Assembly: GCA_054600435.1 (NCBI GenBank)
Contig: BAAIJX010000012.1
Coordinates: forward strand, 1 to 64,000
DNA length: 64,000 nucleotides
Source: Neophaeotheca triangularis
Taxonomy: Eukaryota
Direction: 5' to 3'
The notes under the pieces are model-generated. The model saw only the letters and a program-made list of their open reading frames with translations. It was not told the DNA's origin and ran no database searches. The position numbers and the translations under genes were made by a program. Positions 35,742-45,926 of this stretch are shown one piece after another (position 1 is the first letter of the stretch; every line of letters starts with the position of its first letter).

Positions 35742-38312
35742 ATGAGCCAGAAGAAAGGATGGGGGTCCCTACTCACCGGAGCTGTGGCCGGCCTCGAGTC
35801 GCGATTGGACACTATTCTTGCCGAGGACAGTGAGGCTTCTGCACGAGCTCGGGCGGCAGAGCAAGCTCTCAAAGACGCCAAAGGCAAGCAAGCTGGTTCA
35901 GGCAGCCTAGCTCCGCCTCCGGGGGGCAACAGTGCCAGTGGTTCTGGGGATGCGTCTCGTTCGAGGGTTAACGACCGTCTGGCAGAGCGTCTAGCGAAAG
36001 CTACCCAGCAGAAGCCTACTAGCCAGACAGGGAGCAAAGTTCCCAGCCGCGTTGCTAGCCCAAGCGTAGAGGATGGGAAGAAGAGCGAGAGAGCAAGTGG
36101 TGAAGCGGCAAGACCTGTACCCGAGTCTGAGAGGGCGGAGGATGTCAAGCAGGATGCGGCCAAGTCGGATGAGCCTACCAGCCTGAATGGCGATGTCGAG
36201 AAGCCGGACTCAGCAGAGAAAGGTGATCTCACTACTTCAGGGCTACCCATAAATCCTGCCAAAGTTTCAATCGACACGCCACGAGCTTCCAGTGAGGTGC
36301 AGCAAGACGAAAGCTCTACGCGACCTTCCTCCGAGCAGCCGACAGGGACTTCGCAACCAGCAAAGGATGCTGCTGAACTTGAGACTGAGCTCCAGCGTTT
36401 GCAACAAGAGCACGCCGAGTCCGAGAAGCAACGCAAAGAAGAGATGAACTCCCATCTTGAGCGCATAGATGCGCTGCAGGCAAAGCTACAGTACTTGGCC
36501 AAGGACAGCGTCGCCGCTGCGAAGGAAGCAAACGCTTCAGCACCGAGCGGCACCCTTGAGCAGCAGGTCGCTGAGAAAGACGAGAGAATCGCATTGCTGA
36601 TACAAGAGGGCGAAAAGCTATCCAAGACCGAGATGAGGCATTTGCAGACAATCAAGAAACTGCGAGCAAAGACTACGGAAGAAGACAAAGCTACGGCGGG
36701 TATGAGAAAGAAGCTCGAACGTGCTGAGCGCGCCGAACAGGATCTCAAGCAAAAGTTGCGCAAAGCTGAAATGGCGGATAGACAGGCCAATGAGAAGCTC
36801 AAGCAGATTGCTAGTATTGAGAAGGTGGTGGGAGAGTTGCAGACAGATCGCGAGAATGCCTCGGAGCTGATCAGGAAACTCACTGCGCAATTGCGTGAGT
36901 CAGAGAGAAAAGCAGAACAGGCGCAGAAGGAGGTCAATAGTAGGGCCGCAGAAGCAGACAAGGGTAGGATTGCTGGGTTGGAGAATGAGCTTGAAGATGC
37001 GCAAATTGAGAGGAAGCTCGCGGAAGATAGGGCCGTGGCAGAAGCGAAGAGGGGGAAGGAGGAAACTGATCGGCAGCGTGAGAGGTCCGCCCTGGCAGAG
37101 TCCGAGCTAAAGAATGAGATTGCAGGTTTGGAGTCCAGGCTCGAGGCTATGCGAACAAGAGCTGAAGAGGCAAGCTCGGAGGGTGCTGGTGGTGAGGGCA
37201 GCGTGCATCTTCTTCGACAGGTGGAGATGGTGCAGAGTCAATATTCACAAGCCAAGGAGAACTGGGAGACCATTGAGGGCAGTTTGAATGCGAGGCTTGC
37301 GGCGCTGGAGAAGGAGAGAGATGAGGGGGCGAAGCGAGAGACGGAGGTAAGGCGAAAGGCTAGAGATGTTGGGGGAAGATGTCGGAAGGCTGAGGAGGAG
37401 GTTGAGAGTGTACGGGAAGATGTTAGACGTCTGGAGGCCGAACTTTCCGCAAAGTCTGATCAAGCAAGATCGATGCAGGAGCGACTTGGTCAGGCTGAGG
37501 CGACTGAAAGGGATGCCAAGGCGGACGTCGAACGCCAACGCAAGGTCTGGGAGACTGAATTGGCCCAGCGACTCGAAGAAGAAAAGGCAAAATGGCGCCG
37601 TCAAGCTCCTACACTTCGGACCGAGTCGCCAGCAATCTACAGCCGGAAAGCATCGACTCAAGATCCAGTTCACTTGCCCCCACGCTGGCAACACCGCTCT
37701 TCATCCACGCGCCTGAACCCCCCTCAAGACTCTTCTCCATCCGAGATCCGTCCCAACTCCTCTTACTCACGCCGGGGCTCGACATTGCCCACCCCGACGA
37801 ACCCCAACTTCCCATCAACGCCGGGTCTCAGTCGGCAAGAAAGTTGCCAATCGCTTTCCACGCATACACCCAACGAAGGGCCGCCCACACCTTCTGTTGA
37901 TGCCGAAGCCGACAATTTCGGCACCTCGACACCGCCTTTGCCGCTCGACGAGTTGGTTAGCACGACCACCTCTGGCGCCGGACCGAGCGTGCAGCTTGTC
38001 GAGCGTTTGTCCACCGCAGTGAGGCGTTTGGAGAGCGAGAAGGCTGCTACGCGGGACGAATTGAGTCGGCTTTCGTCTCAGCGAGACCAAGCGAGGGATG
38101 AAGTTGTGGCGCTGATGCGGGAAGTTGAGGCAAGTAGGGAGACGGGAAAGAAGGTCGAGGGATTGGAAAAGGAATTGGCTGAGACGAAGCGCCGGTATGA
38201 GGCTAGTTTGGAGATGCTGGGAGAGAGAGAGGAACAGGTTGAGGAGCTGAAGGGGGACATTGGGGAGATGAAGAGGTTGTATCGGGAGTTGGTTGAGAAA
38301 GTTGGGAAGTGA
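35742..38312 (+). CDS. SGM1: TMF1/Sgm1-like golgin (coiled coil)
   Basis: GWGSLL..LESRLDTIL N-terminus, IALLIQEGEKLSKTE..TIKKLR, SVQLVERLSTAVRRLESE..RYEASLEMLGE..VEELKGD..MKRLYR. Confidence 0.88.
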   Translation: MSQKKGWGSLLTGAVAGLESRLDTILAEDSEASARARAAEQALKDAKGKQAGSGSLAPPPGGNSASGSGDASRSRVNDRLAERLAKATQQKPTSQTGSKVPSRVASPSVEDGKKSERASGEAARPVPESERAEDVKQDAAKSDEPTSLNGDVEKPDSAEKGDLTTSGLPINPAKVSIDTPRASSEVQQDESSTRPSSEQPTGTSQPAKDAAELETELQRLQQEHAESEKQRKEEMNSHLERIDALQAKLQYLAKDSVAAAKEANASAPSGTLEQQVAEKDERIALLIQEGEKLSKTEMRHLQTIKKLRAKTTEEDKATAGMRKKLERAERAEQDLKQKLRKAEMADRQANEKLKQIASIEKVVGELQTDRENASELIRKLTAQLRESERKAEQAQKEVNSRAAEADKGRIAGLENELEDAQIERKLAEDRAVAEAKRGKEETDRQRERSALAESELKNEIAGLESRLEAMRTRAEEASSEGAGGEGSVHLLRQVEMVQSQYSQAKENWETIEGSLNARLAALEKERDEGAKRETEVRRKARDVGGRCRKAEEEVESVREDVRRLEAELSAKSDQARSMQERLGQAEATERDAKADVERQRKVWETELAQRLEEEKAKWRRQAPTLRTESPAIYSRKASTQDPVHLPPRWQHRSSSTRLNPPQDSSPSEIRPNSSYSRRGSTLPTPTNPNFPSTPGLSRQESCQSLSTHTPNEGPPTPSVDAEADNFGTSTPPLPLDELVSTTTSGAGPSVQLVERLSTAVRRLESEKAATRDELSRLSSQRDQARDEVVALMREVEASRETGKKVEGLEKELAETKRRYEASLEMLGEREEQVEELKGDIGEMKRLYRELVEKVGK

Positions 38313-41838: not shown

Positions 41839-43027
41839 TCAAACCTCCGGGTAAATGTCACTAATAAATCGTCAGCGATGAACATTCCTACATTGGACAT
41901 CTTGAGAATACTCACGTCCTCCTCAACAACGGCATCTCCTTTCGTATTGTTCGTATCCTCTCGAAATCAATCTCGGCGTACCCAATTGCAGGCTCATCCT
42001 CAGCCTCGCCACTCAACTCCGTCAAAATCTCACCCCACGGCGAAATAACAACACTATGGCCATAGCTGGTTCGCTTCTCATTATGCTTACCCACCTGCGC
42101 CGCCGCAATGACATACGCCTGGCTTTCTATCGCACGAGCCTGCAAAAGCGGCATCCAATGAACCTTGCCAGTCTCGGGAGCGAAAGCGCTTGGGTAGAGG
42201 ATGCAATCCGCCTTTTGACGCGCCAGACTGAGAGCAATTTCGGGAAACCTCAAGTCGTAGCAGATTGCGCTCCCAAGTCTGCCTACGGGACTCTCGAAAG
42301 GTGGTAAAATTTCGTCTCCAGGTTGTACCGTAGTCGACTCCCTCATCACGGGGCCGCCTTTGATCTCGAGATCAAATAGATGGAGCTTCTTGTAGCGTTG
42401 ACTAATCTCACCCCTGGCGTCGATCCATAGAAGACTGTTGATCATTCGGTTGGATTCGCTCTCACTGGGCTCATGGACACCAACAGAGATCGGAAGCTTA
42501 TGTTTGCGGGCCTCCTCTCTCAGGCCCTGAAGGAACAGAGATTTGTCGGCTGGCTGGCATAACGAGAGGCTCTCGTCTGGGTTGGATCCGACGTAATCGC
42601 TAGCCTCCGGTAGAAACAGTGCCTATCTGAATGCATTGAGCGATTGTCGTCAAACTCTTCAAGAAATCCTACTACTGACCTTGGCGCCTTTCTCCGCCGC
42701 GCGTTGAATCACTGTCCTGCATTGTGATAGATTATGGGACATTGATGCAGTCGAACATATTTGACCGATCGCCTGTTGAAACGATTAGTCGTGCAATTGA
42801 AGAAATTCACGGCTCTGCTCAACCCTTGAACTCACCGCGAGAGCCATCTTTGGAGCAGGGTTCGTGCTCTGAGGTAAGCTTTGCGACGCTTGAGCGTCTG
42901 TTTCTGGGATCGGCACTGTTTTGGTCATGCTTGTGGAATGTAGAAGAGAAGTGGTAGAGAAGGACAGTTTCGTACTTTTTGTCGTCGCTGGTGGCTTTGG
43001 TAGTTTCGTGACCCAACGAGGCATCAT
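41839..43027 (-). CDS. NIT2: Nitrilase-family deaminated-glutathione amidase (yeast Nit2/human NIT1-like); exons 43027 (or 42847)-42836, 42772-42680, 42622-41916, 41860-41839
   Basis: AIGQICST, LFLPEASDY, YKKLHLFD, AICYDLRFPE (Glu-Lys-Cys triad), ARAIESQ, SYGHS, RRT|DIYPEV. Three canonical introns: 42773-42835, 42623-42679, 41861-41915. Confidence 0.9.
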
Positions 43028-43486
43028 CGATTTATACGCAAAAGCGCCGCCGTTAGAAGAAACGTCCGAAACGCAGCCCTGGAGATGCATGGCTGTTCAC
43101 TTCGCCTGACTTCTAAGGCATCAACTGCGGATATGAACACGCTAGCGCGCAAGGGCACGTGCTTACCAGGCACCTAAAATTCGAGTTCCGCAAATTCAAC
43201 TTCAACTTCATCGCTTCACCACCACTTCCATCAACAACACCACCGTGGTGACCACGTTTGGCTTCTTGCCGCTTTCAACCACTCACTTGAGCGCCTCCAG
43301 TCTCAACACACTCTGCTGCTGTCTCTCGACGGGCCCACAGGACATGTTGTAGCAGGCAGTATGGAGACACGACGTTCAACACCCTCTTGTCCACTTGCAC
43401 CGTGAGGTGTACTTTGTCGACGAGACTAGCTCTTGCAAAGGTATGTCTACACCCGATCCCTCCCGCCAACTCCAGCCACGCTCCCA

Positions 43487-43564
43487 AGGATGTCAAAACT
43501 TTACACGAACAATCCAATTCCTATAGCGTCATGCAGGACTTTACAATCTCTAGAATTACACTGA
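43487..43564 (+). ncRNA. Box C/D snoRNA, U45/SNORD45-like (18S Am, human A159-equivalent)
   Basis: Variant C box AGGATGT; D box CTGA 43561-43564 preceded by CTCTAGAATTAC, antisense to conserved 18S GUAAUUCUAGAG. Confidence 0.78.
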
Positions 43565-43750
43565 GACCGAGCATCCATCACAAGTCCTTGCGCTTCCATG
43601 GCCTTTTCAACCTTGCTAACTTGATAGCTCAGGAAACACAACACTTCCTTGTCAATTTTTCGCTGCTTCCGTGGACGGTCACTCTTCAATCTAGCATGAC
43701 TTGAAAAGGTATGCCTAACACCCTCTTCCATTCCCCTCACCTGCCCTTTT

Positions 43751-43836
43751 GTGATGAAACTTTGACAAGAATTGGCATTCCTCGATCCAAAAATACAATG
43801 TGGATTTTGTCTTTTATAAGTTTCAGCCTTGTCTGA
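43751..43836 (+). ncRNA. snR41: Box C/D snoRNA snR41 (18S Gm1126, yeast numbering)
   Basis: C box GTGATGA; 15-nt guide TAAGTTTCAGCCTTG antisense to 18S CAAGGCUGAAACUUA before CTGA 43833-43836; D+5 rule gives G. Confidence 0.88.
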
Positions 43837-43954
43837 TTCGACATCCCGTCACATACATCTCGCCGGATCATCAACATGAAGAGCCTTTCACTAATAGACT
43901 CTTCAGGTACATTAAGTCCCTTTCAAAGCCTGCCGGCACTCGTAGCCATGTTAC

Positions 43955-44088
43955 ATGATGAGACCTCCGAACGCGTCGGGCGGACAGAGCGCATAGCACA
44001 CCCCTCATCGGAGCATCCATCAAAGCGGGACGTACAAATCCTGCGGGTGTTTTGGTGAGGGAGTGGCTGTTGAGAAAGCGTTGTCTGA
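43955..44088 (+). ncRNA. snR70: Box C/D snoRNA snR70 (18S Cm1639, yeast numbering)
   Basis: C box ATGATGA; D' guide GCGtCGGGCGG-A-CAGA antisense to 18S CCGCCCGUCGC (1 mismatch); extra GTACAAA complement; D box 44085-44088. The snR41-snR70-snR51 order matches the yeast cluster. Confidence 0.8.
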
Positions 44089-44217
44089 TCTAGTCGGCGG
44101 AGTCCAGCTGGCGAGTGTGCATACATGCTGCTGAATAAGTGCTGACATGATCGATAGGTACTGCCATCACTATCCCCTTCCCACTGCCATAGGCCCCCGG
44201 CAACGGCCATCTCTGCA

Positions 44218-44378
44218 ATGATGAACAACTATTCACACTGTTTGAACCAACTTTCGTTGTAACGAGCGGAAGCGGTTATGAACGTACAAAATACACTGAA
44301 AATTCTGATTTAATGAGGTATGTTGGATCCAGACTTGAGACCGTTCCCAAAACTTGTGCTGACCATGTGATAGCCTGA
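44218..44378 (+). ncRNA. snR51: Box C/D snoRNA snR51 (25S Um2729 and 18S Am100, yeast numbering), interrupted by intron 44318-44373
   Basis: C box ATGATGA; D' guide TATTCACACTG-T-TTGA (25S CAGUGUGAAUA); D guide CTGATTTAATGAG|C-CTGA (18S GCUCAUUAAAUCAG), completed only after splicing. Confidence 0.88.
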
Positions 44379-44535
44379 TCGCAGAGAAGAACAACACGCA
44401 GCTGTTATTACCAAACGTTGCCGAGTGTGTAGCTAATGCGAAGACACACTACAGGTCATTGCCATGCCACGACAGCATTGGATTCGATAGAATGAGTGAG
44501 TTTTATCGTCTTGCACTTCTCCCTTTCCCCTTCAA

Positions 44536-44612
44536 ATGATGTCAACCTTTTTATCTTAGCGGATTCCACTGCAATTACATTGAAGACCCTTCACGAAAAT
44601 CAAAATCTCTGA
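44536..44612 (+). ncRNA. Box C/D snoRNA with two 25S guides (family unassigned)
   Basis: C box ATGATGT; guide CTTAGCGGATTCC (25S GGAAUCCGCUAAG); C' TTGAAGA; guide GAAAATCAAAATC-T-CTGA (25S GAUUUUGAUUUUC). Confidence 0.78.
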
Positions 44613-44764
44613 CGCCGAGGCATCTTGACTGCGATTCATCGCTCGTTTGTCATGACGGACAATGCTAACGACTCCGTCTCAGGCCTGCATAACTGCGCGC
44701 TTACCCCAGTAAGACACCTGCATCCGGTACGTTCATTCCTACTTGGAGCTTTCCCCACCACTGC

Positions 44765-44855
44765 ACGATGAACAAACAAACAATTTTGCTGTGTTCTTTC
44801 CGAGTGTGCTTCGGTACTCGTTGAAGATACAAACTATTTCACCTTGGAGAACTGA
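44765..44855 (+). ncRNA. Box C/D snoRNA, U24/snR24-like (25S Cm1437) with a D' guide to 5.8S rRNA
   Basis: C box ACGATGA; D guide TTCACCTTGGAGA-A-CTGA (25S UCUCCAAGGUGAA); D' guide TTTGCTGTGTTCTT-T-CCGA (5.8S AAGAACGCAGCGAA, with G-U pairs); hairpin between D' and C' (TTGAAGA). Confidence 0.82.
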
Positions 44856-45926
44856 TAGACCCCCTCTCGCTGCACTATACCGATGTATGCAAGACGTTGG
44901 TTGGCTTCGTACTGACTTTGATTCAAAGGGCGCCTTTTGGCTTGTCGTTATCTTTTCATCAGTTAACCTTTGCTGTCTCCTTTGACAGCGATGGGCTGGA
45001 GAAGAGGTGTCGGAATGACTTCGTTTGCTTCGACAGCGGATCGCGAAGCTTCGAGTCTCATGAGACTTGTCTGCCGTACATTGGAGGCATTTGCAGCTAA
45101 TGAGGCATCGCAACAGAACTGCATCAATGGTGTACATCGCGAGTGCCACGCCCGAAAGCAATGACATTCCTTCCTTTTCACACGCTAGGCATCTAGACAT
45201 TATTCGTTCACACGCCATCTAGCTCAATGCCCTCCCGGCAGCCAATCATCGAAATCATCCCAAAAAAGCATTTCAAAAAAGAACCCATCACCGTGAACCA
45301 ATTCAGCCTTGTAAAAAAGTCGTACCAGCGTTAAACTACACGTATTCTCCCGAAAGACAAAAACGGCCGAGTGCGACACCCCAACGGAGCCCTTATCATC
45401 GCAAGAGCCAAGCACCGGGCCCAATGTAGCATGTAGGATATTAAGAAACCCTCAATGTCGCGCGCCGCAATGTACATACGTACTCGGACAGCATTCCAGT
45501 AGTCCTGGCACTCCTTGCTGGCCCATCCGTCCGTCCGTCCGTCCTGTTTCAATTGCCCGTGTATGTACATATTTCCCTGACCATGCAGGGCAAAGCCTTT
45601 GCACACATATACCGCCTCTGCTTGCCCCGTGGCTATCCATCCATCCATCCATCCCTCCATCCGCAAGTCTGTCTTCCCTTCCGATTGAAAACTCGCCCAT
45701 TCCGACTTGCGCCATGTCCCGTTCATCAGCCCTCATGCATGCATGCATGCGTGGCAAGCTCGTTCGCAAGCAGAAAACAAACGTCTACGCCTGTACGCCC
45801 CTGTCGTTGTTGGAATAAGACACTTGCCTTACAAGACCGAAAAATACCAGTGTGCCCCTTCCACCATTATCCTGCCCTGCGGCACCCAAGGCCATCTACC
45901 CAATGTCTGACGTCGGTCGCGTGCAC

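Follow-up and report, generated by a model that had tools for sequence, protein, structure and literature searches.

How are three neighboring small nucleolar RNAs (snoRNAs) released from one transcript when no exon lies between the introns that carry them? The question is raised by a locus on contig BAAIJX010000012.1 of Neophaeotheca triangularis, of which the first 64,000 nucleotides were analyzed (the window). On the + strand, positions 43441-44928 belong to a non-coding host gene for several box C/D snoRNAs in succession, and at two places in it a branch point and AG directly abut a donor motif. A preliminary description had proposed that snR41, snR70 and snR51 leave by three consecutive splicing steps, and had pointed to juxtaposed introns in fungal snoRNA clusters; for this same cluster an 'intron-intron-intron' layout has indeed been published (Luo 2013, PMC3596301). 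The order snR41, snR70, snR51 on one strand matches cluster III of that study, and both the layout and the stepwise model are already known for cluster III in Euascomycetes; in all of these, both interior exons are reported to be missing, the end introns carry U45 and U55, and snR51 contains an intron B (Luo 2013, PMC3596301). The sections of that paper cited here contain no analysis of donor conservation or of the A-rich exon end and no mention of an internal D box in snR51; its supplements may show donor sequences. As a layout, the present locus is one more genome for a published clade-wide feature. Added here are counts of GTA conservation, the class of the internal donors and an AAG exon end across 48 clusters of loci (among the matches listed). 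Luo 2013 names both stepwise splicing and alternative acceptors as possible (PMC3596301); the conservation counts bear on this question and point to bases worth mutating. The locus may serve as a compact model for recursive splicing, with a snoRNA and an rRNA methylation as the read-out of each step.

Recursive and nested splicing of snoRNA clusters in yeasts of the Candida clade was reportedly described by Mitrovich et al. in 2010, a study cited by both Luo and Donovan. For clusters II and III of Candida-clade yeasts, recursive plus nested splicing is documented by Donovan 2016 (PMC5033589). Those yeasts share with the model considered here the zero-size exons between snoRNA introns and a donor that would be rebuilt by the previous splice; D. 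hansenii has a zero exon between snR41 and snR70, as here, whereas some Candida-clade exons measure 1 nt or have a negative size and here both are exactly zero and accompanied by a nested intron (PMC5033589). The zero-nucleotide exon of Cryptococcus BOT1 likewise has an AG|GT pivot, and its intron is removed in consecutive pieces, with branch and junction proof for both steps, whereas the present case is known from sequence and one RNA contig (bioRxiv 10.1101/224170). In Drosophila and mammals such sites subdivide very long introns, whereas here each piece of 200-300 nt would deliver a functional RNA (bioRxiv 10.1101/224170). Abutting U2 introns have been named as a known class (PMC6616335).

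The host gene and its snoRNAs

The locus (Table 1) corresponds to fungal snoRNA cluster III (snR41-snR70-snR51), a non-coding host gene that here contains two zero-length exons. Intron A is followed by a real exon, not a zero-length one, and the sequence has no interior exon between introns I, II and III. Shared with cluster III of Luo 2013 are the order, the two missing interior exons, the U45 intron in front and a snoRNA intron behind, the placement of intron B between the snR51 guide and the D box, and the intermediate from which introns I and II have been removed; the locus differs by one more predicted snoRNA intron (44496-44682) (PMC3596301). This extra intron with its sixth snoRNA occurs also in two relatives (L003, L046), and two others (L020, L021) have a different extra snoRNA-like intron before Afu_294. 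We take Afu_294 to be the U55 of the published layout; on this equivalence the U45-type intron in front and the Afu_294 intron behind are the end introns of that layout. The acceptor of intron C is uncertain (AAG 44928 or one farther downstream). Rfam gave two matches above gathering in the whole window, both to A. fumigatus models (Afu_455 and Afu_294). A TMF1-like coiled-coil neighbor gene (35742-38312) is nearest to Ascomycota protein clusters, and a minus-strand ORF at 41912-42445 is presumably nitrilase-like.

Table 1. Features of the snoRNA host gene on contig BAAIJX010000012.1 and the evidence for each.
Feature	Position	Strand	Evidence or detail
Intron A, U45-type C/D snoRNA at ~43487-43564	43441-43632	+	192 nt, GT..AG, spliced in X1 contig
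76-nt non-coding exon, 3' end AAAAG	43633-43708	+	Present in X1 contig
Intron I, donor GTATGC, branch A 43894, acceptor CAG, snR41/Afu_455 at 43747-43838	43709-43906	+	Signals, Rfam
Zero-length exon 1, CAG|GTACAT	43906/43907	+	Sequence, relatives
Intron II, donor GTACAT, branch A 44145, acceptor TAG, snR70-position C/D snoRNA at ~43955-44088	43907-44157	+	Signals
Zero-length exon 2, TAG|GTACTG	44157/44158	+	Sequence, relatives, 43708-44158 joint in one RNA contig
Predicted intron III, donor GTACTG, branch A 44436, acceptor CAG, carries snR51	44158-44454	+	Signals
snR51 boxes: C box 44218, terminal D box 44375-44378	Within intron III	+	
Second LSU guide and internal CTGA (44305-44308), possible alternative D box	44293-44308	+	11-nt LSU match
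Nested intron B in snR51, 56 nt, GTATGT, branch A 44362, TAG	44318-44373	+	Sequence signals
Predicted 41-nt exon 3' of intron III, begins GTCATT	44455-44495	+	Signals
Predicted extra intron, sixth C/D snoRNA at ~44531-44615	44496-44682	+	13-nt LSU match upstream of D box
Predicted intron C with Afu_294 at 44761-44858	44727-44928	+	Rfam 65.9 bits (gathering 43), signals

Of the snoRNA labels in the preliminary description, snR41 and snR51 are borne out, and snR70 is kept as a probable assignment. snR41 matched Afu_455 with 75.4 bits (gathering 48) and resembles N. crassa CD9, which is listed as the snR41 homologue (Liu 2009, PMC2780460). For snR51, Rfam gave 28.9 bits in the window (44214-44325), below gathering, and scores above gathering in 4 of 20 relatives (among the matches listed); the label is backed by its guides, which pair with rRNA (reference L141, a eukaryotic rDNA contig confirmed by Rfam). 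A search of the window with E up to 10 gave no Rfam match for snR70, whose label draws on where it lies, on its C/D boxes and on a motif conserved among the loci. The U45-type snoRNA of intron A resembles N. crassa CD17, and its guides pair over 12 nt with SSU rRNA and over 11 nt with LSU rRNA. The rRNA references comprised the 3' part of the LSU and positions 1-564 of the SSU; within this range, pairing was assessed for the guides of the U45-type snoRNA, snR51 and the sixth snoRNA. L142 (viral contigs) proved not to be rRNA and was left out. L120, L122, L131, L139 and L141 are eukaryotic rDNA contigs in prokaryote genome assemblies (contamination). A fusion of snR51 with snR54/CD49, considered on account of a weak Rfam match and a 10-nt match, was rejected because the 10-nt match is confined to the window among the 113 loci listed and lies in the D'-C' hairpin. 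The sixth snoRNA (44496-44682) has its best Rfam match in snR61 (E 4.5), which gives no credible family.

The AG|GT junctions and their conservation

At the first junction ACTAAT starts at 43890, CAG ends at 43906 and GTACAT starts at 43907, and at the second GCTGAC starts at 44141, TAG ends at 44157 and GTACTG starts at 44158, as first described; branch A and AG are 12 nt apart at both. Position 44158 had been called the only GT between acceptor II and the snR51 C box, and it is the sole GT up to 44225, which covers that box. Downstream of 43907 lie three more GTs (43916, 43942, 43950), none of them a canonical donor. The likeness to ordinary introns in donor-to-C-box distance was also confirmed (48 and 60 nt at the internal donors vs 46, 42, 40 and 38 nt in four ordinary snoRNA introns), and from D box to branch A introns I and II have 58 and 57 nt, compared with 55-60 nt in the ordinary introns of the cluster.

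Both junctions might be functionless coincidences, AG happening to precede GT at two predicted acceptors. The window has 89 branch-like sites with YAG on its two strands, and GT comes next in 9 of them (~10%, which speaks for coincidence) and GTA in 4; from these frequencies, both junctions by chance come to ~0.01 (GT) or ~0.002 (GTA). Coincidence is refuted by the conservation across clusters, by the use of acceptor 44157 in RNA and by published ESTs (PMC3596301), and its probability is negligible.

Relatives were collected by an exact scan with the snR41 guide and D box, which gave at least 113 metagenome loci. Among the matches listed, 68 distinct loci with an snR70 anchor were kept and 45 were dropped (duplicates, too short, or without the anchor); the kept loci and the window formed 48 clusters by spacer similarity. 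Identity of the snoRNA part had a median of 0.64 over 41 comparable clusters (among the matches listed), with 9 pairs above 0.85, so the loci are related and the counts not fully independent. A uniform rule was applied to every intron, taking the best branch 42-72 nt past the D box and any AG 9-32 nt past the branch A. Under this rule, and among the matches listed, GT abuts acceptor I in 47 of 47 clusters (GTA in 46, +5G in 10) and acceptor II in 33 of 40 (GTA in 32, +5G in 10); at acceptor III the counts are 21 of 30 for GT and 17 of 30 for GTA. The control acceptors, among the same matches, have an abutting GT in 1/26 (U45) and 6/25 (U55) clusters and GTA in 0/26 and 1/25. Compared with GTA in 1/51 controls, Fisher tests gave p values of ~1e-25 for acceptor I and 6e-16 for acceptor II, which are inflated by relatedness. 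A stricter first-YAG rule (among the matches listed) gave an abutting GT in 46/47 clusters at I, 28/36 at II, 16/25 at III and 0/26 at the U45 control; the looser rule was used for all sites because at II the first-YAG rule had several times missed the junction through a tandem AG or a wrongly chosen branch. No other canonical donor precedes the next C box in 44/45 clusters (I) and 32/33 clusters (II), and in 6 of the 7 clusters where no GT abuts acceptor II, inspection by eye shows an actual exon with a GT donor of its own downstream (among the matches listed). The conservation of GTA after acceptors I and II favors the view that these GTs are real internal donors.

Some relatives depart from this arrangement at junction 2. 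The seventh cluster without an abutting GT is that of L031, L012 and L026: in L031 and L012 a tandem AG is followed by GC, which may be a ratchet donor of the GC type. L070 entered the counts as abutting by way of an AAG; alternatively, a 10-nt exon may lie there whose A-rich AG end resembles that of the upstream exon.

Behind acceptor III, 19 of 30 clusters (among the matches listed) combine an abutting GT with a separate canonical donor, mostly ~40-48 nt on. An exon that often starts with GT and has its own donor downstream is like an RS-exon; unlike RS-exons, no skipping product was seen in the one X1 contig, and the exon of the window starts with GTCATT, a degenerate form of the GTA start common in relatives (PMC6224609). 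Acceptor III may be either an optional, RS-exon-like continuation of the ratchet or a site where GTA is kept for another reason. Because GTA is enriched there beside a separate donor, an abutting GTA alone is no proof of an obligatory donor, which weakens the argument from conservation.

RNA evidence and the order of splicing

The RNA run X1, a polyA metatranscriptome in the form of contigs, contained 6% of the sampled window words and gave one contig at the locus (238 nt, depth 2.3, 3 differing letters). Its alignment skips 43441-43632 (GT..AG) and runs to 43711, followed by 16 loose letters that are unique in the window, at 44161-44176. Since the loose end is placed once, the three letters at 43709-43711 and 44158-44160 are identical and the length is exact (43298-43440, 43633-43708 and 44158-44176; 143 + 76 + 19 = 238), the contig is best read as the exon to 43708 joined to 44158, and on this reading the intron II acceptor 44157 is in use. 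The contig reaches 19 nt past the joint, below the 31 nt that the tool requires for a bridge. Its coverage includes neither the snoRNAs nor intron B, which counts neither for nor against them. Of the intermediates anticipated in the preliminary description, the 43708-44158 joint was thus found, and the 43708-43907 and 43708-44455 joints were not seen in this one contig. Such intermediates, proposed there as a check, cannot separate recursion from direct use of alternative acceptors by donor 43709, as Luo et al. also state (PMC3596301). The X1 joint fits direct skipping from 43709 equally well and is silent on the route.

In the second option of Luo 2013, 43709 would be the sole donor and pick acceptor I, II or III; the abutting GT would be a relic or an aid to the second splicing step, and snR70 and snR51 would be trimmed from exon-like RNA or long lariats. 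All EST classes of Luo and the X1 joint can be explained in this way, and an N. crassa snR51 homologue has been classed as exon-encoded (Liu 2009, PMC2780460); the GTA enrichment at acceptor III shows, moreover, that the motif can persist without being the only donor. We nevertheless regard this option as improbable. It leaves unexplained why GTA is kept in 46/47 clusters at acceptor I while spacers diverged and is present in 1/51 control acceptors only (among the matches listed), and why a separate donor appears where the abutting one at II is absent; the distance from donor to C box also remains in the ordinary range.

The best reading, which we consider likely, is ordered stepwise (recursive) release via the two zero-length exons. 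From the sequence we infer the use of the internal donors, the order of the steps, a part for U5 and the release of the snoRNAs from lariats. The 76-nt exon ending at 43708 would be the 5' exon three times. In step 1, 43709-43906 would leave as a lariat with snR41 and the exon would land on GTACAT; in step 2, this donor would remove 43907-44157 with snR70 and the exon would land on GTACTG; in step 3, after or alongside the removal of intron B, GTACTG would remove the remainder to 44454 with snR51. In this way every snoRNA would leave in a separate short lariat, 57-58 nt lying between its D box and a branch A. This reading is supported by the GTA counts at acceptors I and II relative to the controls and by the separate donor in 6/7 clusters (among the matches listed), by the length of the X1 contig, which the predicted second intermediate matches exactly, and by the 42 ESTs from other Euascomycetes in Luo 2013, which represent all three products and none of which is out of order (18 without intron I, 14 without I and II, 10 without I, II and III; PMC3596301). 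Against it stand the X1 contig, which at its depth, with its differing letters and its short reach past the joint fits direct skipping too, the enrichment of GTA after acceptor III, where a separate donor is common, and the relatedness of the loci (both among the matches listed).

According to a review, donors fall into two classes: those of the form AG//GUNNN rely on U5 loop 1, and those of the form NN//GURAG on U6 (PMC11732430). Among the matches listed, the internal donors have +3A in 78/80 and +5G in 20/80 cases, and the position-fixed donor of intron B has +5G in 25/26. The exon before donor I ends in AAG in 36/41 clusters vs 5/42 for donors A and C (among the matches listed); donor I was picked blind to the exon side, and the +5G counts of donors I, A and C, which the donor score inflates, were left out of testing. 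The combination of weak donors with an AAG exon fits the AG//GUNNN class tied to U5 loop 1. Because donor I itself looks mostly strong on the intron side, the simplest explanation of the conserved A-rich exon end, as we infer, is that the exon is reused for the weak internal donors. Weak on the intron side (GTA, rarely +5G), these probably lean on the A-rich exon end via U5 loop 1, a dependence that could favor 5'-to-3' order. The internal donors have a YAG upstream already in the precursor; the predicted AG//GU pairing exists before step 1, which speaks against ordered recursion, and the ordering argument accordingly turns on positions -3 and -4 only.

In a rival course that we hold to be rather unlikely, the internal donors are used in no fixed order, with intron II or III able to leave the precursor first, or their use is mixed with direct skipping from 43709 to acceptor II or III. 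The zero-length geometry leads to the same end product whatever the order (AG|GT is rebuilt either way), and the internal donors sit behind CAG or TAG from the start. Donovan 2016 saw cluster II of Candida spliced by two routes and, for cluster I, minor products in which exons were skipped (PMC5033589), and the X1 joint, silent on the route, agrees with this course as well. Neither the 42 ESTs nor targeted RT-PCR in two yeasts gave Luo an out-of-order product, however (PMC3596301), and the weak +5 position of the internal donors together with the conserved AAG exon end suggests dependence on the upstream exon.

Nested intron B and two possible forms of snR51

The three splicing steps first proposed are too few: intron B, nested in snR51, had been missed, and with it at least four splices are needed. 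Stepwise release via zero-length exons stands as the best reading in view of the relatives and the X1 joint. By sequence, intron B (44318-44373) lies between the 18S guide of snR51 and the terminal D box, and the match of this guide to SSU positions ~96-110 of L141 grows from 13 nt in the unspliced form to 15 nt with intron B removed, the last letter of the match being the first letter of the D box. snR51 also has two LSU guides with targets 5 nt apart, the second of them directly before the internal CTGA, and the 18S guide begins with this same CTGA (44305-44308). Between the CTGA, a possible internal D box, and the branch A of intron B there are 54 nt, a usual spacing. The LSU guide before the internal CTGA is present in 21/29 clusters with intron B vs 0/4 without it (p 0.012; among the matches listed). 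The site targeted by this second guide (yeast 25S-2724) is listed as a D-box target of snR51 for Onygenales and part of Dothideomycetes (Canzler 2018, PMC5824354).

A further reading is possible but doubtful, namely that one conserved A-rich exon end orders the ratchet by licensing the weak GTA donors one after another, and that the last donor, 44158, has two acceptors, so that two snR51 guide RNAs arise by splice order. Splicing from 44158 to the intron B acceptor 44373 would free a short snR51 terminating in the internal D box and directed at two neighboring LSU uridines. Were intron B removed first, splicing from 44158 to 44454 would give a long snR51 guiding the 18S site near position 100, and the same four letters would be D box in the short form and guide in the long one. 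If this is true, the rRNA sites methylated through a single snoRNA gene would depend on the order of splicing. Literature searches did not find such a reading. It gains from two relatives (L077, L078) in which the first snR51 copy keeps the LSU guide and has no 18S guide, whereas an 18S-guide-like stretch, placed before an intron, is found in a second snoRNA that follows a third AG|GT; in L050, by eye, the LSU guide and its CTGA are set apart by a second nested intron. It loses by the observation that the 54-nt spacing may just follow minimal intron size (45-63 nt also in clusters without the guide, among the matches listed), both forms could be trimmed from one lariat, and the 43708-44374 joint is absent from the one X1 contig, which ends at 44176. 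The clone of N. crassa CD6 ends at the position of the intron B donor and is compatible with the long or the short form.

The snR51 region varies among relatives. In L077 and L078 snR51 is seemingly duplicated and divided, with four abutting introns, and in L050 it apparently holds two nested introns, the other one lying before the terminal D box (by eye). In L020 and L021 intron B seems to have moved upstream by a few bases inside the guide (intron sliding). In L011 and L048 the snR51 guides are apparently split over two snoRNAs and there is no intron B; the middle snoRNA of L011 resembles snR70 in its body.
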